A stretch of DNA of 64,000 nt, from positions 64,001-128,000 of the forward strand of contig CAVYSW010000010.1 in the NCBI GenBank assembly GCA_963771275.1, in the 5' to 3' direction. Of this stretch, positions 3,608 to 36,604 are shown in pieces; the stretch's first letter is position 1, and every line of letters begins with the position of its first letter. Position numbers and translations under genes: made by a program. This DNA comes from an uncultured Gemmatimonadales bacterium (GTDB taxonomy: Bacteria; Gemmatimonadota; Gemmatimonadetes; Gemmatimonadales; GWC2-71-9). Under the pieces are notes generated by a model. The model was not told the DNA's origin. It saw nothing but the letters and a program-made list of their open reading frames with translations, and did no database searches.

Positions 3608-5677
3608 ATGACCACCGCCCAGGCAGCACCGCAGGGCATCCGGCCGCCGCCGGACGTGAACCCGCGCGCGGAGCCCGCCCTCGACTTCCCCGACCGGGAG
3701 TACGGCGAGCTGGCGCCGGCGGACTACGCGACGCTCGGCTTCCTGGGCGGACTCGAGGTCCACCAGCAGCTCGCGACCCGCGGCAAGCTGTTCTGCCGCT
3801 GTCCGGCCGGCCGCTACGCCGAGCGCTGCGACGGCGAGGTGCTGCGCCACATGCGGCCGACCCTGAGCGAGCTGGGGGAGTACGACGGCACCGCGCTGAT
3901 GGAGTTCAAGACCAGGAAGGAGATCGTCTACCTGCTCGAGCGCGGGTCGGTCTGCACGTACGAGATCGACGACACGCCGCCGTTCCCGATCGACGACGAG
4001 GCCGTGGAGATCGCGCTCGCCGTCGCGCAGCTGTTCGCGCTGAATCTGGTGGCCGAGCTGCACGTGATGCGGAAGCAGTACCTCGACGGCTCGATTCCCA
4101 CGGGGTTCCAGCGCACCGCCATGGTGGGCCTCACCGGCCGCATCCCGTTCCACGTGCCCGAGCTGGGCGTGCGCCGCGAGCTCGCGATCCGCCAGCTGTC
4201 GCTCGAAGAGGATGCCTGCCGTGAGGTCTCGGACGTGGGCCATCGCGTCACGTTTCGCACCGATCGGCTGGGCATGCCGCTCACCGAGGTGGTGACGGAG
4301 CCGGAGTTCCGCACGCCGCTCGAGGTCCAGGCGGGCGGCCGCCTGCTCGCGCAGGTCGCGCGCGCGACCGGCCGGGTCCGCCGCGGGGCCGGCGCGGCGC
4401 GGCAGGACGTCAACGTCTCGGTCGCCGGGGGCCGGCGGGTCGAGATCAAGGGCGTGGACAACCACCGGCATCTGCCGCGGCTGGTCCACGGCGAAGCGTA
4501 CCGCCAGCTCAACCTGCTGCGGCTCCGGGCGGAGCTCGCGCGGCGCGGCGTCACCACCGACCTGCTGCGCCTTCCCGACAAGCGGCTCCCGTGGGAGGTC
4601 TCCCCGCTGGTGGCCGACGTGAGCGGCGCGTTCTCCCGGGCGCGCTACGCGCCGCTCCGCCAGGCCCGCGACCAGGGCATGACGGTCTGCGCGGTGCGGC
4701 TGCCGGGCTTTGGCGGGCTCCTCACCCAGCGCACGCAGCCGGGCCTCACCTTCGCCTACGAGCTGAGCGAGCGGGTGCGCGTCATCGCGTGCCCCGCCCA
4801 CCAGCGATTCATGGCGCATTCCGATGCGCCGGAGGGCATCCCGCCGGCCAGGTGGCGGGAGGCCCGCGCCGCCGTGCAGGCGGAGACCGGGGACGCCGTC
4901 GTGCTGGTCTGGGCGGACCGCGCCGACGCCGCCACCGCCGCCCGCGAGATCCTGCTCCGCGCGCAGGACGCGACCCTGGGCGTGCCCGCCGAGACGCGCC
5001 AGGCGCACCGCGGCGGGACGACCGGATTCGAGCGCATCCTCCCGGGCGCCGACCGGATGTATCCCGATACCGACACGCCGCCCGTCCCGATCGCCGACGC
5101 CCTGATCGAGCGGGTGCGGGCGACGCTGCCGGAGCCGCCGTGGACGCGCGCGGAGCGGTATGGCGCGCTGGGGCTCGATGAGGTGGCGGCGCACCGGCTC
5201 GCGGGGTCCTCGTGGGCGCGGCTGTTCGACCAGGCGGCGCCCCCCGCCGGAGGGCTCGCGCGCCGGCTCGCGGCGAGCCTCGCCAAGCGGATGCCGTTCC
5301 ACGCGCGCGCGGGCCGCTGCGCGCCGGAGACCGCGGGCGCCATGCTGCGCGGCGCGGTCTCGCGGATCGCGGCGGGGGAGATCCGGCCGGAGGCGCTGGA
5401 TCGCCTGGTGGATGCCGCCGTGACTGCAGGCGACGCGGCGGTGGAGCCGACGCTCGCGCGGTTCGTGCGGCGCCCCGATGACGCCGCGCTGCGCGAGCGG
5501 GTGATCGACCGCGTCGCCCAACGGGCGCGGGCGCTCGCGAACCGCGGGCCGGCGACGCGGCTCCGCTGGTCGATGGGCCAGGCGATGCCCGAGCTGCTGG
5601 GACGGGCCGATCCGGCGGACGTGCGCCGCGGGCTCACGGACCGGCTCGGCGCGTCGGCCGGGGACGCCGCCCGATGA
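3608..5677 (+). CDS. gatE: Glu-tRNA(Gln) amidotransferase subunit E (archaeal type)
   Basis: GLEVHQQL..KLFCRCP, RPTLSELGEYD, RKQYLDGSIPTGFQRT, LEEDAC, DRLGMPL, GAARQDVNVSV, RVEIKGV, GVPAETR, LPGADRMYPDTDTPP. Includes the central insertion that GatB lacks and a helical tail. Confidence 0.92.
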   Translation: MTTAQAAPQGIRPPPDVNPRAEPALDFPDREYGELAPADYATLGFLGGLEVHQQLATRGKLFCRCPAGRYAERCDGEVLRHMRPTLSELGEYDGTALMEFKTRKEIVYLLERGSVCTYEIDDTPPFPIDDEAVEIALAVAQLFALNLVAELHVMRKQYLDGSIPTGFQRTAMVGLTGRIPFHVPELGVRRELAIRQLSLEEDACREVSDVGHRVTFRTDRLGMPLTEVVTEPEFRTPLEVQAGGRLLAQVARATGRVRRGAGAARQDVNVSVAGGRRVEIKGVDNHRHLPRLVHGEAYRQLNLLRLRAELARRGVTTDLLRLPDKRLPWEVSPLVADVSGAFSRARYAPLRQARDQGMTVCAVRLPGFGGLLTQRTQPGLTFAYELSERVRVIACPAHQRFMAHSDAPEGIPPARWREARAAVQAETGDAVVLVWADRADAATAAREILLRAQDATLGVPAETRQAHRGGTTGFERILPGADRMYPDTDTPPVPIADALIERVRATLPEPPWTRAERYGALGLDEVAAHRLAGSSWARLFDQAAPPAGGLARRLAASLAKRMPFHARAGRCAPETAGAMLRGAVSRIAAGEIRPEALDRLVDAAVTAGDAAVEPTLARFVRRPDDAALRERVIDRVAQRARALANRGPATRLRWSMGQAMPELLGRADPADVRRGLTDRLGASAGDAAR

Positions 5678-7066
5678 GCGGCGAGAGCGCCTACCGCGGC
5701 TATCGCGGTCCCTGCGTGGCCGTGATGCAGCGGCTCGGCTTCCGGGTGTGGAGTGAGGTCCGGATGCGGACCTCGCGCGGGGAGTTCGAGGGGCTCGTGC
5801 TGCCGCGGTCCGAGACCAGCGACGAGCACCACATCGTGCTGAAGCTCGGCACCGGCTACAACATCGGCATCCGCCACGACACCGTGCTCGCGGTGGAGCT
5901 GCTCGGCTACCGGGAAGCCGTCTACAAGATCCCCGAGCAGGCGTTCCCGGTGGATCCCGCTGCTGCCGCGCGTCAAGCTGTTCGGCACGGGCGGCACGAT
6001 CGCCTCGCGGCTCGACTACCGCACCGGCGCGGTGATCCCGGCGTTCACGCCCGGCGAGCTGTACGGCTCGGTGCCGGAGCTCGCCGACATCTGCAATCTC
6101 GAGACGGAGAAGCTGTTCGGCATCTTCTCCGAGAACATGGGGCCGGAGCAGTACGTGGTGCTCGCCGAGCACGTGGGCGAGGCGATCCGCGCGGGCTACG
6201 ACGGCATCGTGATCGGCCACGGCACCGACACGATGCACCACACCGCGGCGGTGCTGAGCTTCATGGTGCAGCGCCCGCCGGTGCCGGTCGTGATGGTCGG
6301 GAGCCAACGCTCGTCGGACCGGCCGTCGTCCGACGCGGCGCGCAACCTGATCAGCGCCACGTGGACGGCGGCGCGCGGGCCGATCGCCGAGGTGATGGTG
6401 TGCATGTTCGGCCCGACGTCGGACAGCTACAACCTGCTGCATCGCGGCACCCGGGTCCGCAAGATGCACAGCTCCTACCGGAGCACGTTCCGCACGCTGG
6501 GCGACATCCCGCTCGCGATGGTGGAGGACGCGGTCGTGACGCCGCTCAAGGACGACTGGCGGCCCCGCCGCAGCGATCGCGAGGTGACGGTCCAGGCCGT
6601 CTACGACGAGCGGGTGACGATCCTGTACTACTATCCGGGCATGCACCCGGACCTGCTCGATGCGCTGGTGGACCGCGGCTACCGCGGGATCGTGATCGCC
6701 GGCACCGGGCTCGGGCACGTGAACCGCAAGATCTATCCCGCGCTCGAGCGGGCGCACGCCGCCGGCGTGCACATGTACATGACGCTCCAGACGCTGTGGG
6801 GCTTCGTGCAGATGCAGGTGTACGAGACGGGCCGCGAGATCCTCCAGCTCGGCGTGGTGCCGCTGGCCAACATGCTGCCCGAGGTGGCGTTCGTGAAGCT
6901 GGGCTGGGCGCTCGGCGCGCACCCCGACGACCCGGCCGCGGTCCGCGCGCTGATGACGACCACGCTCGCCGGCGAGATGACGGAGCGGGAGCCGCACGAC
7001 GGATACCTGATTCTCCAGGGCGCCGTGCCGGAGATCAAGCAGTTCCTGGCGACGGTGTGGAAGTAA
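5674..7066 (+). CDS. gatD: Glu-tRNA(Gln) amidotransferase subunit D, with a +1 frameshift near 5958 (probably a sequencing error)
   Basis: GatD-type N-terminal domain (FEGLVLPRS..DEHHIVLKLGTGYNIGI). After the shift come asparaginase motifs GTGGTIASRLDYRTG, HGTDTM, GSQRSSDRPSSD, RKMHSSYR and GTGLGH. Confidence 0.9.
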
Positions 7067-7147
7067 CGTGCGTGCAGCGTGGAGCGTGCAGCGTAACTGC
7101 CTCGGCTATCGGCCATCGGCTAACGGCCAACGGCCAACGGCTAACGG
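7067..7147 (+). repeat. Two adjacent heptamer arrays: GCGTGCA-type x4, then CGGCYAW x6
   Basis: Read directly between the gatD stop and the glnS start. Confidence 0.85.
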
Positions 7148-7156
7148 AGACGTAGC

Positions 7157-8842
7157 ATGACGGAGCGGGGGGGGCAGGACTTCATCCGCGCGATGGTCGC
7201 GCGCGACACGGCGGCCGGCAAGTGGAGCAGCCGGGTCGCGACGCGGTTCCCCCCCGAGCCCAACGGCTATCTGCACATCGGGCACGCCAAGTCGATGTGT
7301 CTCAACTTCGGTCTGGCGCGGGAGCACGGCGGCACGTGCAATCTCCGGTTCGACGACACCAACCCGCTCACCGAAGACCAGAAGTACGTGGACGCGATCA
7401 AGCAGGACATCCGGTGGATGGGGTTCGAGTGGGCGGGCGAGTTCTACGCCTCGGACTACTTCGAGCGGCTGTACGACTTCGCGGTGATCCTGATCCAGCA
7501 GGGCAGGGCCTACGTGGATTCCCAGAGCGAAGAGGAGATCCGGCTGGGCCGCGGGAGCCTCACTCGGCCTGGTCTGGAGAGCCCCTATCGCCAGCGGTCG
7601 ATCGCCGAGAACCTTGATCTGTTCGCCCGGATGCGCGCGCGGGAGTTCCCCGACGGCGCGCACGTCCTGCGGGCGAAGATCGACATGACGCACCCCAACT
7701 TCCTGATGCGCGACCCGCTGCTCTACCGCATCCGGCACGCGTCACACTACCGCCGCGGCGACGCGTGGTGCCTCTACCCGCTGTACGACTTCACGCACTG
7801 CCTGTCGGACGCGATCGAGCGGATCACCCACTCGCTCTGCACCCTGGAGTTCAAGGACAACCGCGAGCTGTACGACTGGATCGTGCACGCGGTCGGCATC
7901 CCCGAGCCGCCCGAGCAGACCGAGTTCGCGCGGCTCAACCTGGACTACACGGTGCTGTCGAAGCGGAAGCTCGTGCGGCTGGTGCGGGAGGGCCGGGTGG
8001 GCGGGTGGGACGACCCCCGGATGCCGACCATCGCCGGCCTCAGGCGCCGTGGCGTGACGCCGGAGGCGATTCGCGCGTTCGCCGACATGGTGGGTGTGGC
8101 GCGGGTCGAGAGCCGGGTGGATCTGGAGAAGCTCGAGCACACCATCCGGGACGACTTGAACCTCCAGGTGCCGCGCGTGCTGTGCGTGCTCAAGCCGCTC
8201 AAGGTCGTGATCGAGAACTGGCCGGACGGGCAGGTCGACGAGCTGGAGGCCCCGTACTACCCCCACGACGTGCCGAAGGAGGGGGCCCGCACGCTGCCGT
8301 TCTCGGGCGTGCTCTACATCGAGCGGGACGACTTCCTGGAGGACCCGCCGAAAGGGTTCTTCCGCCTTGCCCCGGGGCGCGAGGTCCGGCTGCGCTACGG
8401 CTACCTGATCACGTGCACCGGGGTGGTCAAGGACGCGTCGGGGCAGGTGGTGGAGCTGCGCTGCACCTACGACCCGGCCACGCGCGGCGGCGATACGCCC
8501 GATGGTCGCAAGGTGAAGGGGACGATCCACTGGGTGTCGGCGGCGCACGCGCTCACCGCCGAGGTCCGGCTGTACGATCGGCTGTTCACCAAGCCGGACC
8601 CCGACGACGTGGGGGACGAGGAGGACTTCACGGCCACGCTCAATCCGGAGTCCCTCGTCGTGCTGCCGGATGCGCGCGTCGAGCCGAGCGTGGCGCTCGA
8701 CCCGCCGGGCTCGCGCTATCAGTTCGAGCGTCAGGGCTACTTCGTGAGCGACCTCATGGACTCGCAGCCCGGGGCTCTGGTGTTCAACCGCACCGTCCAG
8801 CTGCGGGATACCTGGGCCAAGGTCGTCGCGAAAGGTGCCTGA
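7157..8842 (+). CDS. glnS: Glutamine--tRNA ligase
   Basis: [68 protein letters not shown]. No C-terminal YqeY extension. Confidence 0.96.
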
Positions 8843-8848
8843 GCCCGG

Positions 8849-9538
8849 CTACATCCCGGCGCCGAGCAGGGCCGGGAAGTTCGCGATGACCTTCTTCTTG
8901 CCGTCGCCCGAGATCGGCTTGGCGCCGAGATAGACGTCGAACAGCGCCCAGCACAGGGCCGGTGACGCGATCGCCGGCCGCTCGGCGCCCTTCACCAGCG
9001 AGTGCAGCGTGCCGTTGGCGCAGGTGAACACCAGCTCCGCGTCCTTGGTCATCTGCTCGACGCTGAAGTAGCCGCGGAACGTCTGAAGCGCCTCCGCCCC
9101 GCCCGGCATGTTCATCTCGGCCGCGGCGCGCGCGACCCGGGGCCCGAGCGACTCCTCGAAGGCCGAGGCCATCGTCTCGCCGTCCACGTTTCGGGTCATG
9201 ACGAGCCGCAGGCTCATCGGGAACGTCAGCTTGATCAGCGCGTCGTAGAACGACGGGTCCTTCTGCAGCGTCTTGAGGTCCTTGCCGGCGAAGCTCGCGA
9301 GCTGTTGCCGGGCGGCGGCCGAGTCGACGTACAGGCCGAACGCGTAGACCTTCACCGCGAGGAAGGTCTTGGTGCGGAGCCCCGTGCCCATCAGAATCTC
9401 GTCGCCCGACGGGGTGGTGAGGTGCAGCGGGAACGGCACGCCGCTGCCGGGCTCGTTGACGGTTTGCTGCGCGGGGAGCGCGCCGGCGCCGAGCAACATG
9501 ACGCCCGCGAGCAGGGGAATGGCGGTGCGTTGCATCAT
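8849..9538 (-). CDS. Secreted chalcone-isomerase-fold protein
   Basis: Signal peptide, GTGLRTKTFLAVKVYAFGLY, ALFDVYLGAKPIS. Confidence 0.85.
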   Translation of the reverse strand: MMQRTAIPLLAGVMLLGAGALPAQQTVNEPGSGVPFPLHLTTPSGDEILMGTGLRTKTFLAVKVYAFGLYVDSAAARQQLASFAGKDLKTLQKDPSFYDALIKLTFPMSLRLVMTRNVDGETMASAFEESLGPRVARAAAEMNMPGGAEALQTFRGYFSVEQMTKDAELVFTCANGTLHSLVKGAERPAIASPALCWALFDVYLGAKPISGDGKKKVIANFPALLGAGM

Positions 9539-9617: not shown

Positions 9618-9706
9618 GGGCAGCGTGTAGCGTGTAGCGTACAGCGTGCAGCATGACTCCACTCGGCATGGAGCGATCGGCCATCGGCTATCGGCTATCG
9701 GCCAAC
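9618..9706 (+). repeat. Composite heptamer arrays (GCGTGTA-type x4, CGGCYAT x4)
   Basis: Same two repeat families in the same order as 7067-7147. Overlaps the NRAMP stop codon. Confidence 0.8.
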
Positions 9707-10945
9707 GCCGATCGTGCGCGCCGCCTCGTAGGTGAAATACCCGAGCGTCGCGATCAGGATGGCGTTCGTGAGCCAGCGATTCCTGAGGCTCGCGCCCACC
9801 CATGCCGTCCGGGTGTTGAGCAGCAGCAGCGTGAGGGCGAGGAGCGGCATGAAGCACGCGCCGAGCACGGCGTAGGAGAGCTGGGCCCGCTCCAGCGACA
9901 TCCAGAGGAGCGGCAGCGGCACCAGCGCGATTCCCACGAGATACGCGCGATAGGGCCGGGTGCCGGCGAGCGCGGTCGGGACCGGGGAGCGGCGGTCGGC
10001 GGCGCGGCGGTGCAGGTAATAGAAGTCGGCGAACAGGTAGGGGATGCTCTGCCACACGCCGAGCAGGCTCGAGAACACCGCGCCCCAGAAGCCTGCGAGG
10101 AAGATCCACTTGCCCGCCGGCCCGAGCACCAGGGCGAGCTGCCCGGCAAGCTCGAGCGCCGCCGTCGGGCCCTGGCGCAGGGTGACGCGCGAGCCGATCA
10201 GGATCATCGAGAGGCCGAACAGCGCGGTCAGGGCGTAGCCGGCCCCGAGATCGATGCGGCAGTCCCGGGCGCCGCGCTCCCCCGCGCGGCCCTGCTCCCT
10301 GATCCAGTAGCCGTAGGACATGAGCGTGACTGTGCCGCCCACGCCGCCCAGCACACCCAGGGTGTAGGCGGTGCCGCCCTCCGGGACGCGCGGCACGAAG
10401 AGCCCCGCGGCCACCTCTCCCCAGTCGGGGTGGATCAGCACCGCCGTGAGGATCACGCCCACGAACATCAGGGCCACGCACAGCGCCATCAGCCGCGCGA
10501 ACAGGCGGAACCCGCCGCGCCACACCAGGGCGGCGCCCACCAGCGAGTGGATCATGCCCCAGAGGATCTTGGAGCGCGCGAGGTCGTGGCCCAGGGGGAG
10601 GATGCCGGTGCCCGCGACGCCGCACGCGCTGATCAGCGCGCCGCCGGTGAAGAAGGTCCAGGGCAGCAAGTAGAGCAGGAAGATCCACCGGATCCACGGG
10701 CCGAGCCGGTCCACCCAGCCCTCGAGCAGGGTGGTGCCGGTCGCCATCTGCCAGCGGGCGATGCCCTCGTTCAGGAACCACTTGATCAGGGCGCCGATCC
10801 ACGCGGCCCAGAGCAGCGTGAGCCCGAAGCGCGAGCCCGCGAGACTCGCCGTGAGGAGATCGCCGGCGCCCACTCCGGTGGCGGCGACCAGCATGCCGGG
10901 GGCGAGCAGCGCGAGCCACGAGTGTCGCGACGGAGCCTGTTGCAC
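9695..10945 (-). CDS. NRAMP-family divalent metal transporter
   Basis: PGMLVAATGVGAGDL, NEGIARWQMATG, GGVGGTVTLMSYGYWIRE, many TM helices. Start placed at GTG 10945. Confidence 0.85.
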   Translation of the reverse strand: MQQAPSRHSWLALLAPGMLVAATGVGAGDLLTASLAGSRFGLTLLWAAWIGALIKWFLNEGIARWQMATGTTLLEGWVDRLGPWIRWIFLLYLLPWTFFTGGALISACGVAGTGILPLGHDLARSKILWGMIHSLVGAALVWRGGFRLFARLMALCVALMFVGVILTAVLIHPDWGEVAAGLFVPRVPEGGTAYTLGVLGGVGGTVTLMSYGYWIREQGRAGERGARDCRIDLGAGYALTALFGLSMILIGSRVTLRQGPTAALELAGQLALVLGPAGKWIFLAGFWGAVFSSLLGVWQSIPYLFADFYYLHRRAADRRSPVPTALAGTRPYRAYLVGIALVPLPLLWMSLERAQLSYAVLGACFMPLLALTLLLLNTRTAWVGASLRNRWLTNAILIATLGYFTYEAARTIGVGR

Positions 10946-11276
10946 GGCGCCGAAGGTGGTGGGCGTCCGGCGAGGCCGCAAGGCGCGGGTCGCCTCGGCG
11001 TGATTCCGCGCCGAGCGGTGGTCGGGAAGGGTGCTGCGGAGAGACCTCCGTGGGGTTGGCACCTGGCGATCTCGCTGGCCATCGCCGCTTGCCCAGCGCG
11101 GACTCCCACGGCCGAATTACGGACCGCGAGCGGCCGGCATTTCAATGCGCACGGCGTAATACCGGGGAGGGTTCGATCTCAACTCCACGCCGTCCGTCCA
11201 CACGCGAAGGCTCGCGCCGGTATGGATGTCACGAGGGCTTCCGCTCACCCACGTCCCGCTCCCGGTGAATCCCCCC

Positions 11277-11741
11277 TCATCCAAGACGTCCCCGCGGCTC
11301 ATCGCCGCCAAGCCCGGGCTCGCCCACGTCCGCGTCGGCGTCGCGCAATTCCGGGTCCTTCGCCATTCTGGCCAGGGCCAGCGAACCAGCAGCGCAACCG
11401 GCACCCGACAGTGTGAAGATGGGGCCCAACACCAGAAAGTCATTCCCTCCAAGGGCGGCGGCCAACACGACGGCGAGCAGAAAACCACCAACGCCTCCCC
11501 ACGCTGCAAAGTGTGGCAGCGACATCTGATCAAACCTGCGACGGCCCTCAGCGATCCCGAGCACCGCCGAGAAGGTGACGCCGGCAAGGAAGCCGAGCAG
11601 ACCAAAGAACAGGGGAAACGGGACGTCGGCGGCGCCAACACCGACCACGAGCAGGAGGATGAGCCCCGCGCCGAACCATGCCATGGCCCAGATCAGGCCC
11701 ATCCCGATGGCTCCGCGAATTCGTCTGAGCCACTTCCTCAT
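11277..11741 (-). CDS. Hypothetical membrane protein (about 4 TM)
   Basis: MRKWLRRIRGAIGMGLIWA..., GGAGG RBS, hydrophobic segments. Confidence 0.75.
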   Translation of the reverse strand: MRKWLRRIRGAIGMGLIWAMAWFGAGLILLLVVGVGAADVPFPLFFGLLGFLAGVTFSAVLGIAEGRRRFDQMSLPHFAAWGGVGGFLLAVVLAAALGGNDFLVLGPIFTLSGAGCAAGSLALARMAKDPELRDADADVGEPGLGGDEPRGRLG

Positions 11742-11954
11742 TACGACCTCCCGGTGCACTTGGACCGTTACTGTGGTCGCTTGCTTCCCGCCACACACAT
11801 GGACTTTGCATCGCAAAGTACGCGGTCGGCAGCTGGGGGACAAGCGCCGTGCGGTTCGGCGCCCCGCTGCGTGGTTTCGATGACGCGCCCCGTGGGGGGC
11901 TCGCGCATCGTCCCGCGTGACCCCTTGCGCGCCCTTTCGAGCCGAGCCGACCTT

Positions 11955-12503
11955 ATGGGCATGGCAGCTCCGACGTACTACACGGCCGACATGGTCCGGG
12001 CATTGCCGGACGACGGCAACCGCTACGAGGTGGTGCACGGGGAGCTGCTCGTGACCCCGGCCCCGCGCTTCTGGCATCAGGAGATCGTGCGCCGTCTGGT
12101 CCTCGGCTTGAGCGCGTACACCGCCCGCGAGTCGGTCGGCCACGTCATCGCCTCCCCTGCCGACCTCTCGTGGAGCGGGGACGTCCTGGTGCAGCCCGAC
12201 GTGTTCGTGGCCGACCTGACGGAAGCGCGCACGCTCGACTGGTCGCGGATGCGGCACCTGTTGCTGGCCGTCGAGGTCCTGAGCCCATCGAGCGCCCGCG
12301 CCGACCGGTTCACCAAGCGGCGATTGTACCAGGAAGTCGGCGTACCCGCCTACTGGATCGTGGACGCCGATCAGCGATTCGTCGAGGTGTGGACACCGAC
12401 GGCGACCTTCCCGGCGGTCGAGCGCGACCGGGTTACGTGGCGGCCGCCGGGCGCGGGCGCGCCGTTCGTGCTCGGGATCGCGGAGCTGTTCCAGCCGATC
12501 TGA
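11955..12503 (+). CDS. Uma2-family endonuclease-fold protein
   Basis: LPDDGNRYEVVHGELLVTPAP..H, QPDVFV, VEVLSPSS..DRFTKRRLY..GVPAYWIVD. Confidence 0.92.
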   Translation: MGMAAPTYYTADMVRALPDDGNRYEVVHGELLVTPAPRFWHQEIVRRLVLGLSAYTARESVGHVIASPADLSWSGDVLVQPDVFVADLTEARTLDWSRMRHLLLAVEVLSPSSARADRFTKRRLYQEVGVPAYWIVDADQRFVEVWTPTATFPAVERDRVTWRPPGAGAPFVLGIAELFQPI

Positions 12504-34648: not shown

Positions 34649-36604
34649 ATGCTGGTGGATATTCGGATCACACTGCCCGATGGAACGGAGCGCGCGGCGC
34701 CGAGTGGCACGACCGCGCGGGCGATCGCGGAACGGATCGGGCCGCGGCTCGCGCAGGCGGCGCTCGCCGCCCGGGTGAACGACGCGATCTGGGATCTCGA
34801 TCGTCCCCTGCGCGCGGACGCCCGGGTGGAGATCATCACCGAGCAGGACCCGGCGGCGCTCGAGGTGCTGCGCCATTCGGCCGCGCACGTGCTCGCGACG
34901 GCCGTCCGCCAGCTGTTCCCGGAGGCGAAGATCGGCTTCGGGCCGGCGATCGAGGACGGCTTCTACTACGACTTCGAGGTGCCGCGGCCGTTCACGCCGG
35001 ACGACCTCACGGCGATCGAGGCGCGGATGCGTGAAGTGGCCGCGGCCGACCACACGTTCGTCCGGGAAGAGGTGGACCGCGCCGAGGCCGGCCGCCGGTT
35101 CCGCGACGATCCGCTGAAGCTCGAGCGGCTGGCGGAGCTGGGCGACGACGAAGTCATCACCATCTACAGCGACGGCCCGTTCACCGACCTGTGCCGCGGG
35201 CCACACCTGCCGAGCACCGGCCGGCTGAAGCACTTCCACCTGCTGCACGCCGCCGGTGCCTACTGGCGCGGGGATTCCCGCCGGCAGATGCTGCAGCGCA
35301 TCTACGGCACCGCGTGGCTCACCAAAGCCGATCTCGACGCCTACCTGCACCGCCTCGCGGAAGCGGAGAAGCGCGATCATCGCGTCCTGGGACGCCAGCT
35401 CGACCTGTTCAGCATCCAGGAGGAGGTCGGCCCGGGGCTCGTCCTGTGGCACCCGCGCGGGGCGATGATCCAGTTCGAGCTCAGGCGCTTCATCGAGGAC
35501 GAGGTGCTGCGGCGCGGCTACCGGCTGGTCTACACGCCGCACGTCACGCGGGAAGACCTGTTCATCCGGTCGGGGCACCTGCCGCTGTACGCCCACAACC
35601 AGTTCCCGGCAATGGCGGCGGGCGAGGGCGAAGCGGAGCACGTGCGCTACCGCACCAAGCCGATGAACTGCCCGATGCACACGCTGATCTACGCGGCCCA
35701 GCAGCGGTCGTACCGCGACCTGCCGCTGCGCCTGGCCGAAGTGGCCAACGTGTACCGCAACGAGCTGTCCGGCACGCTGCATGGGCTGCTGCGCGTGCGG
35801 GGGCTCACGATGGACGACGCGCACATCTTCTGCCGCGAAGACCAGATCGAGGACGAGATCTACGACTTGCTCGACCTCACGGATCTCGTGCTCCACCGGA
35901 CGTTCGGCTTCGAGTACCGGCTCGATCTCGCGACCCGGCCCGCCAAGAAGATCGGTGACGACGCGGCGTGGGACGTGGCCGAGGCGGCCCTGCGGGGGGC
36001 GCTGGACCGGCGGGGCCTGCGCTACGGGATCGATGTGGGGGGCGGCGCGTTCTACGGGCCCAAGATCGACATCAAGCTCAAGGACGCGATCGGGCGCGAG
36101 TGGCAGGGCGCCACGATCCAGCTCGACTACCAGATGCCGGAGCGGTTCCAGCTCGAGTACACCGGGGCCGACAACCGGCCCCATCGTCCGGTGATGATCC
36201 ACCGCGCGATCTTCGGGACGCTGGAGCGGTTCGTCGGCTGCCTGATCGAGCACTTCGCCGGCGCGTTCCCGCTGTGGCTGGCGCCGGAGCAGGTGCGCGT
36301 CCTGCCGATCACCGACGTGCAGAACGAGGCCGCCCGCGCCGTCCACCGGCGGCTGCGCGCCGCCGGCGTGCGCGCCGAGATCGACGACCGGAACGACACG
36401 CTGAACTACCGGATCCGCGACGCGGAGCTGCTCAAGGTCCCCTACATGGCGGTGATCGGGCAGCGCGAGGTGGAGCAGGGGACCGTCGCCGTGCGCGTCC
36501 GGGGAGCGGGCAAGAAGCAGGACATCGTCGCCGTCGACGCGTTCCTCGCGCGCCTGACCGACGAGATCCACCGGCGCGCGCTCACGCTTGGCACATCCGC
36601 TTGA
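34649..36604 (+). CDS. thrS: Threonine--tRNA ligase
   Basis: TGS domain, RHSAAH, DLCRGPH, KRDHR, KPMNCP, YRNELSG, FYGPKID, IHRAIFG. Confidence 0.97.
   Translation: MLVDIRITLPDGTERAAPSGTTARAIAERIGPRLAQAALAARVNDAIWDLDRPLRADARVEIITEQDPAALEVLRHSAAHVLATAVRQLFPEAKIGFGPAIEDGFYYDFEVPRPFTPDDLTAIEARMREVAAADHTFVREEVDRAEAGRRFRDDPLKLERLAELGDDEVITIYSDGPFTDLCRGPHLPSTGRLKHFHLLHAAGAYWRGDSRRQMLQRIYGTAWLTKADLDAYLHRLAEAEKRDHRVLGRQLDLFSIQEEVGPGLVLWHPRGAMIQFELRRFIEDEVLRRGYRLVYTPHVTREDLFIRSGHLPLYAHNQFPAMAAGEGEAEHVRYRTKPMNCPMHTLIYAAQQRSYRDLPLRLAEVANVYRNELSGTLHGLLRVRGLTMDDAHIFCREDQIEDEIYDLLDLTDLVLHRTFGFEYRLDLATRPAKKIGDDAAWDVAEAALRGALDRRGLRYGIDVGGGAFYGPKIDIKLKDAIGREWQGATIQLDYQMPERFQLEYTGADNRPHRPVMIHRAIFGTLERFVGCLIEHFAGAFPLWLAPEQVRVLPITDVQNEAARAVHRRLRAAGVRAEIDDRNDTLNYRIRDAELLKVPYMAVIGQREVEQGTVAVRVRGAGKKQDIVAVDAFLARLTDEIHRRALTLGTSA

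Follow-up and report, generated by a model that had tools for sequence, protein, structure and literature searches.

GatDE amidotransferase genes joined to glnS in a Gemmatimonadales bacterium: a possible parallel route to glutaminyl-tRNA in a large bacterial GatDE group

Introduction

In a 64,000-nucleotide stretch of DNA from an uncultured Gemmatimonadales bacterium (hereafter the window; G000:C10:64001-128000), the two genes of a GatDE-type, tRNA-dependent amidotransferase, gatE and gatD, overlap each other and are followed on the same (+) strand by glnS, the gene for glutaminyl-tRNA synthetase (GlnRS). Together they form a native three-gene unit of this bacterium and, to judge by profile scores, structural matches and substitution rates, GatE and GatD are true members of the GatDE family that evolve under purifying selection. 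The pair is no rare import; it belongs to a very large group of bacterial GatDE that spans many phyla. We tentatively propose that GatDE in this lineage may well act as a Glu-tRNA(Gln) amidotransferase in parallel with GlnRS and in place of GatCAB.

These observations bear on an accepted rule. Reviews and primary papers confine GatDE to archaea: one says so (PMC9499178), and another states that it "occurs exclusively in archaea" (PMC2811023). As described in the former, GatDE is the only route to Gln-tRNA in archaea, where it works with a glutamyl-tRNA synthetase (GluRS) of the non-discriminating type on tRNA-Gln species with an A1-U72 pair. In the section concerned of a third paper, bacteria are classed by GluRS, GlnRS and gatCAB only, and a discriminating GluRS together with an essential GlnRS is inferred from the absence of gatCAB (PMC3927822). 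Full-text literature searches, which did not cover subscription papers, brought up none on GatDE of bacteria. Since their scores exceed the NCBI equivalog cut-offs, the two genes are very probably annotated as GatD and GatE in public databases already.

GatE, GatD and GlnRS as a native unit

The gene gatE (3608..5677, + strand) encodes 689 amino acids comprising a GatB/GatE catalytic cradle, a central insertion domain and a C-terminal tail. Residues 39-680 align in one stretch with residues 2-615 of the 619 residues of archaeal GatE from Methanothermobacter thermautotrophicus (2D6F_C; E 5.8e-89), and GatE from Pyrococcus abyssi (1ZQ1_C) is matched as well, whereas GatB chains in PDB are reached at E 1e-23 and weaker. 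The protein scores 404.8 bits against TIGR00134 (cut-off 319.55) and barely passes the threshold of NF003107 (458.4 bits; cut-off 456), while GatB models give 50-135 bits against cut-offs of 315-680 and match only residues ~125-310 and 482-680. Given that the stretch between these two GatB-matching parts aligns with archaeal GatE, the central insertion is present; in keeping with this, the PF02934 match extends over residues 48-501 for a profile of 277 positions.

The ATG of gatD overlaps the TGA of gatE as ATGA. The first part of gatD (5674..5958, + strand, frame 1) carries the GatD N-terminal domain (PF18195, residues 25-77), which is held in the first 92 codons and is 80-86% identical to the four GatD N-terminal parts available from the genus of the host. 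The second part (5960..7066, + strand, frame 2; TAA at 7064-7066) encodes type I asparaginase-like glutaminase domains (PF00710 and PF17763); the change of frame between the two parts is taken up below. This C-terminal part alone reaches 444.9 bits against TIGR02153 (gatD_arch; cut-off 324), and an intact GatD of the genus reaches 497.4 bits. The best PDB match of the latter is P. abyssi GatD (1ZQ1_A; E 6e-114), with plain asparaginases at E 1e-41 and weaker. The window translation contains the motifs GTGGTIAS, HGTDTM and RKMHS, which we take to be the asparaginase-type catalytic motifs and which are identical between GatD of the genus and GatD of P. abyssi. A sequence-only reading of this DNA, made beforehand, had described a gatE/gatD overlap with glnS 90 bp further on, a GatE insertion absent from GatB and an N-terminal domain on a type I asparaginase, and had concluded that the enzyme is neither GatCAB nor AnsA; the coordinates and the domain anatomy were right on each point, and the profile scores and PDB matches place the two proteins with GatE and GatD rather than with GatB or plain asparaginases.

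The gene glnS (7157..8842, + strand) encodes a GlnRS of 561 amino acids with the Pfam tRNA-synt_1c domain and two anticodon-binding domains, and scores 707.6 bits against TIGR00440 (cut-off 425.8). Against NF011291, the model of the Deinococcus-type GlnRS fused to YqeY, it scores 922 bits over model positions 12-558 of 769 only, and has no YqeY tail. The idea that the tail of GatE stands in for the missing YqeY was rejected, as all 17 GlnRS found among 41 relatives (see below) end near model position 560-620 of 769, with or without GatE. The 90-bp spacer between gatD and glnS (7067..7156, + strand) is largely made up of two arrays of 7-base tandem repeats (GCGTGCA x3.6 at 7070-7094 and CGGCCAA x5.4 at 7110-7147) and shows no conservation: in three further loci from Gemmatimonadota, only 3-21 bases lie between the end of the GatD match and the start of the GlnRS match.

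All three genes lie on the + strand in the order gatE, gatD, glnS, and each passes the cut-off of an NCBI curated family. Because the neighbours on both sides are on the opposite strand (two response-regulator genes upstream; a chalcone-isomerase-like gene and then an Nramp transporter gene downstream), the three stand as one unit. The host genome (G000; 3.86 Mb on 11 contigs, with a completeness rating of 96.7% and a contamination of 0.01%) has a G+C content of 70.3%. The base composition of the unit, which had been read as resembling that of neighbouring genes, does so at third codon positions (G+C 0.94-0.98 in the three genes versus 0.96 in a neighbouring gene) but not overall, as gatE stands at 75.9% G+C against the genome value. 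The closest public loci are titled Gemmatimonadales or Gemmatimonadota metagenome assemblies, and the public runs that hold the largest shares of the window's words are peat, soil, sediment and wetland metagenomes.

GatDE in the order and across bacteria

The relatives compared are 41 genomes of the order, the host included; one of them (G020) is unpublished and contributes one row to each count, and all conclusions hold without it. Of the 41, 11 genomes were found to encode GatE, namely all seven of the genus plus G014, G019, G028 and G030. GlnRS is present in 17 genomes, that is, in 10 of the 11 with GatE (the exception, G006, is 73% complete) and in seven of the 30 without it. The gene gatB was detected in none of the seven genus genomes, nor in G013, G014 or G025, and is found in the other 31. 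Asparaginyl-tRNA synthetase (AsnRS) is present in 39 of the 41. The genus possesses both GlnRS and AsnRS, but GatCAB could not be detected in it and appears to have been lost. One member of the same family, G013, rated 100% complete, has AsnRS and GluRS but no GlnRS, GatB or GatE at the thresholds used, and masked or missing sequence is possible in this case.

In five of the seven genus genomes gatE, gatD and glnS share a contig, with glnS directly behind gatD, and in the other two the contigs end inside the unit. The reservation of the sequence-only reading that the contig might be chimeric here is not borne out, since four other genus genomes have the same gene order on single contigs.

A GatD alignment scan of one genome per species matched at least 599 stretches, at least 569 of which encode a relative; details were taken from the best 80. 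These 80 relatives are 62-87% identical and all come from bacterial metagenome assemblies, whose titles include Gemmatimonadota, Acidobacteriota, Eisenbacteria, Myxococcota, Planctomycetota, Aminicenantes, Ignavibacteria, Calditrichota, Zixibacteria and WOR-3. The initial impression of an exceptional archaeal gene in a bacterium has to be abandoned in the face of so large a group in so many phyla.

Gene neighbourhoods were read in these 80 loci, some of which are incomplete at their ends. A glnS gene lies within 6 kb in six of them: directly behind gatD in four Gemmatimonadota loci, one of which is a contig of a genus member, and, in one locus of Myxococcota type and one of Planctomycetota, a short way upstream on the same strand. 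In the same four Gemmatimonadota loci the GluRS gene gltX and a tRNA-Ser gene lie upstream of the unit. One locus of the 80 carries tRNA-Lys and tRNA-Glu genes, and another a tRNA-Asn gene 370 bp behind gatD; neither asnS nor aspS, the latter encoding aspartyl-tRNA synthetase (AspRS), was seen in any of them. The neighbourhoods thus favour the Glu/Gln system for GatDE. Compared with the bacterial group elsewhere, in which the same gene pair is found with GlnRS mostly encoded at another place in the genome, the present case is distinguished by glnS within the unit, by a genus without GatCAB and by a one-base frameshift.

Whole-genome searches were made in 50 of the 80 GatDE genomes, picked for long flanks. 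GlnRS is present in 47 of them and GatB in 24 (23 over the cut-off), among which are all three that have no GlnRS. AsnRS was found in 48 (46 over the cut-off). An AsnB-type asparagine synthetase occurs in 35 and is missing from eight of the 26 genomes without GatB and from seven of the 24 with it.

Synthetases and tRNAs of the host

The host genome encodes one GluRS, by a gltX gene at C10:57779-59104 (-), which adjoins a tRNA-Ser gene 8.5 kb upstream of gatE (2.8 kb in a sister genome), as well as one bacterial-type AspRS, one AsnRS and an AsnB-type synthetase (385 bits; cut-off 267). In this genome, within its stated completeness, the sole match of the gatB model is gatE itself, the best gatA matches reach 184 and 176 bits (cut-off 481), and gatC has no match. 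The redundancy of a direct and an indirect route, surmised from the glnS neighbour alone, therefore extends to the entire genome, in which GatDE looks redundant.

Three real tRNA-Gln genes are present, one with a CUG anticodon on contig C3 and two with UUG on C10 (G000:C10:33552-33623 and 35287-35357, 1.7 kb apart and outside the window), and all three have U1-A72 and A73. The bacterial form of the acceptor end had been expected; for GatDE to act on these tRNAs, it would have to recognise this form instead of the archaeal A1-U72. The host tRNA-Asn has the same U1-A72 pair. A fourth ARAGORN call for tRNA-Gln, of 91 bases, pairs poorly and was taken as false.

By our own parsing, the tRNA-Gln(UUG) is laid out like tRNA-Glu(UUC), with a 4-base variable loop and a near-identical D arm; the variable loop of tRNA-Gln(CUG) has five bases. 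Two forms of tRNA-Gln(UUG) occur. A 71-base form is common to all 24 relatives from other genera in which copies were read, G025 included, and a 72-base form, distinguished by C38 and by an additional T in the D loop, was observed in the genus without GatCAB only, where it is identical in four other members and has one mismatch in G003. In the 72-base form the D arm becomes almost that of tRNA-Glu(UUC). Reportedly, an Acidithiobacillus GluRS can charge a tRNA-Gln(UUG) of such a tRNA-Glu-like layout.

In a neighbour-joining tree without support values, GluRS of the genus falls in a clade that is sister to GluRS of relatives with GatB but without GlnRS, and the latter enzymes must therefore be non-discriminating. 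The lineages with GlnRS lie in at least two clades of this tree, so that the counts for the order reflect few independent events.

A predicted parallel route to Gln-tRNA

Taken together, the evidence leads us to suggest, with less than firm confidence, that GatDE, as a predicted active tRNA-dependent amidotransferase, took over from GatCAB in this lineage. The single GluRS, orthologous to the necessarily non-discriminating GluRS of relatives that lack GlnRS, would accept tRNA-Gln, or at least its UUG species, and yield Glu-tRNA(Gln), which GatDE would then convert to Gln-tRNA(Gln) alongside GlnRS. The Glu/Gln gene neighbourhoods support this proposal.

With archaeal GatDE, as in M. thermautotrophicus (2D6F) and P. 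abyssi (1ZQ1), the system shares the two subunits, the domain order, full-length alignments and adjacent, overlapping genes, but the host is a bacterium with GlnRS whose tRNA-Gln has U1-A72 instead of A1-U72. Moreover, the archaeal indirect system has no GlnRS, whereas here glnS is in the unit, and none of the 50 genomes searched has GatDE as its sole route. Given the presence of GlnRS, the bacterial type of tRNA-Gln and the finding that GatDE is never the only route in these genomes, the system is not the archaeal one. With bacterial GatCAB it has in common that GatE is a paralogue of GatB, whose models match the cradle and the tail, and the two enzymes likely have their chemistry and their U1-A72 tRNA substrates in common; it differs in that the glutaminase is the asparaginase-type GatD rather than the amidase GatA, that there is no GatC, and that GatB does not have the insertion domain of GatE. 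The genus appears to have swapped GatCAB for GatDE.

Several observations weigh against the proposed parallel route. Another route to Gln-tRNA is present in all 50 of the GatDE genomes searched, and if GatDE together with GluRS were a sufficient source of Gln-tRNA, some genomes with GatDE only would be expected. Likewise, within the order GatE is found only where GlnRS is present, apart from the single incomplete genome mentioned above. Two markers of GluRS specificity were tried. The tRNA-Glu-like layout of tRNA-Gln(UUG) was rejected as a mark of misacylation, as it does not separate the groups: it is present in G025, which has GlnRS but no amidotransferase. The Arg358-type marker of discriminating GluRS was rejected too, as a candidate Arg occurs in 27 of 28 full-length GluRS of the relatives, whatever their route (the exception, G032, has Trp). 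In a part of the paper that deals with it, the Arg358 rule is reported to be phylum-specific (PMC3927822). The D loop of tRNA-Gln(UUG) in the genus is also one base longer than in other relatives. Such an additional base in the D loop is the feature by which amidotransferases reject tRNA-Glu. Finally, a genuine extra base in gatD would leave this strain without a functional GatD. The pattern of GatDE as never the sole route and a GluRS specificity that these markers do not reveal weaken the proposal.

The same pattern can be accommodated in a more general way, which is possible although on balance we doubt it: bacterial GatDE might be an accessory that relies on another route, serving one isoacceptor (the tRNA-Glu-like UUG species), proofreading or channelling in physical contact with GlnRS or GluRS, or amidating Asp-tRNA(Asn). 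Unlike its archaeal namesake it would then not be a self-sufficient glutamine route, which would explain why it was found only in genomes with GlnRS (47 of the 50) or, in the other three, with GatB.

Other substrates and conditions

A role in asparagine supply is the alternative that deserves the most attention, unlikely as it seems to us. GatDE would then serve asparagine, or both amides, by amidating Asp-tRNA(Asn) in place of GatCAB, which is possible only where GlnRS covers glutamine; this would explain both why GatDE is never the sole route to Gln-tRNA and how the genus could lose GatCAB. An enzyme that reads the U1-A72 pair common to tRNA-Gln and tRNA-Asn of the host might accept both, and the one locus with a tRNA-Asn gene behind gatD points the same way. 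The most suggestive case is G089 (locus L112, candidate division CSSED10-310), in which GatDE and GlnRS are present and neither GatB nor AsnRS was found; should that genome be complete, its Asn-tRNA would have to come from GatDE. Set against these points is the near-universal presence of AsnRS (39 of the 41 relatives and 48 of the 50 GatDE genomes), and the neighbourhoods, with no asnS or aspS in 80 loci compared with glnS in six and gltX in four. Moreover, archaeal GatDE is specific for Glu-tRNA(Gln). For the archaeal enzyme, the pertinent part of one paper describes only Glu-tRNA(Gln) activity (PMC9499178).

A precedent for an amidotransferase that persists despite both direct synthetases, GlnRS and AsnRS, is described in a portion of the literature on Deinococcus, Thermus and Bdellovibrio (PMC4206432). 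The enzyme in these bacteria is GatCAB, and here it is GatDE, with an AsnB-type synthetase present. GatCAB is reportedly kept in Deinococcus, Thermus and Bdellovibrio as the only way to make asparagine. A corresponding need for asparagine biosynthesis behind bacterial GatDE was considered and rejected, as the lack of AsnB does not follow that of GatB: an AsnB-type synthetase is encoded by the host and by 35 of the 50 GatDE genomes, and it is missing at similar frequencies with and without GatB (AsnA was not searched for).

It is rather improbable that GatDE is instead a conditional backup, by which GluRS and GatDE would supply Gln-tRNA when free glutamine is low, with, for example, asparagine or ammonia as the amide donor. 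The co-occurrence of GatDE with GlnRS in 47 of the 50 genomes, the operon with glnS, the construction of GatD on an asparaginase and the origin of the top runs from peat, soil, sediment and wetland are all compatible with such a role. As against this, if the three genes are one unit, GatDE would be made together with GlnRS and not in its place, and no regulatory element came to light around the unit, where scans yielded 0 promoter-like sites, no match to Rfam and no usable terminator. A backup of this kind would, furthermore, require a non-discriminating GluRS no less than the parallel route does.

The extra base in gatD

In the host assembly gatD is not one uninterrupted frame. The extra-base site (5955..5966, + strand) shifts frame 1 to frame 2 by a single-column insertion relative to seven relatives, and the one extra base, near 5959-5961, lies in GATCCCGCTGCTGCC, outside any homopolymer. 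The base is missing from all seven relatives in the alignment, whose gatD reads in one frame. Three contigs at least 99% alike that bridge the site, from three studies, are without it as well, the letter left out being that at 5959 (runs X1, X2) or 5961 (run X3). A further run, X5, does not bridge the site; such contigs show presence, not absence, and one of the runs could be the source sample.

This lesion could mean that gatD is a true pseudogene in this strain and that the GatDE route is being lost as redundant, which we regard as quite improbable. In its favour, besides the extra base in a context that is not a homopolymer, there is Ser in the window at base 6425, where all six close relatives and the contigs of X1, X2 and X5 have Arg. 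Also, five of the seven differences in gatD between the window and the near-identical contigs are synonymous, so that the window represents a distinct strain and not merely a noisy copy. The remainder of the gene argues in the opposite direction. No gatD lesion beyond the extra base was found, and third-position G+C is 0.96-0.98 in each half of gatD in its own frame. Among the alignment columns that at least 97% of 82 bacterial GatD sequences share, the window has 0 private changes, while eight of 12 comparison sequences have 1-5 and the other four have 0. The ratio of nonsynonymous to synonymous substitution rates of the C-terminal part is 0.13-0.18 against four relatives, much as between two intact relatives (0.12), and gatE and glnS are intact.

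Elsewhere in the host assembly, the reading frame of a fragment of an AsnB-like gene, which lies at the end of a contig (C6:4-858), switches two times in the space of 300 bases. These changes look like indel errors at a low-coverage contig end, and indel errors thus occur in this assembly, which also speaks against a true pseudogene. Of five genes compared with genus loci for frameshifts, too few for a rate, only gatD is split. The frameshift noticed at the outset is hence present in the assembly, while the notion of a decaying relic that had been attached to it is disfavoured by the substitution ratio, the lack of private changes and the contigs without the extra base. Either an assembly error or a very recent strain-private lesion accounts for the extra base, which is not a feature of the GatDE system.

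A substrate outside the two classical mischarged tRNAs, be it another tRNA-bound or a non-tRNA carboxylate, is the least probable of the alternatives: it would fit the apparent redundancy in all 50 genomes and a host tRNA-Gln without the archaeal A1-U72 mark, but GatE retains its tRNA-binding insertion and tail domains in full, the neighbours are glnS, gltX and tRNA genes, and an identity of 62-87% among GatD across phyla fits a conserved core function.

Genes around the unit

Behind glnS in the window lies the chalcone-isomerase-like gene (8849-9538, -), which in a sister genome (L037, ~1682-2425) is found between tRNA-Ser and gatE. In the host genome ~8 kb, including the two response-regulator genes, separate gltX and tRNA-Ser from gatE. 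The altered place of the former gene and the gap together point to a local rearrangement or insertion within the genus. Further downstream, a long open reading frame (9653-11416, +) with a strong excess of A over T, a low-complexity translation and no family lies antisense to the Nramp-type transporter gene (9695-11062, -), and the C-terminal third of the product of another open reading frame (11226-12503, +) carries a domain of the Uma2 family (putative restriction endonuclease).

Implications

If the accessory role of bacterial GatDE outlined above is true, it would overturn the rule that GatDE is confined to archaea, along with the inference of a discriminating GluRS from the absence of GatCAB. 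The large bacterial GatDE group, almost always beside GlnRS, breaks the assumption of an archaea-only enzyme, on which models of early genetic-code evolution build, as well as the assumption behind inferences drawn from gatCAB alone. To this the window adds glnS built into the unit, a genus without GatCAB, and the counts of GatDE as never the sole route in the genomes searched. The question it poses is what role a second, ATP-consuming route to amide aminoacyl-tRNA has in cells that possess the direct enzymes.

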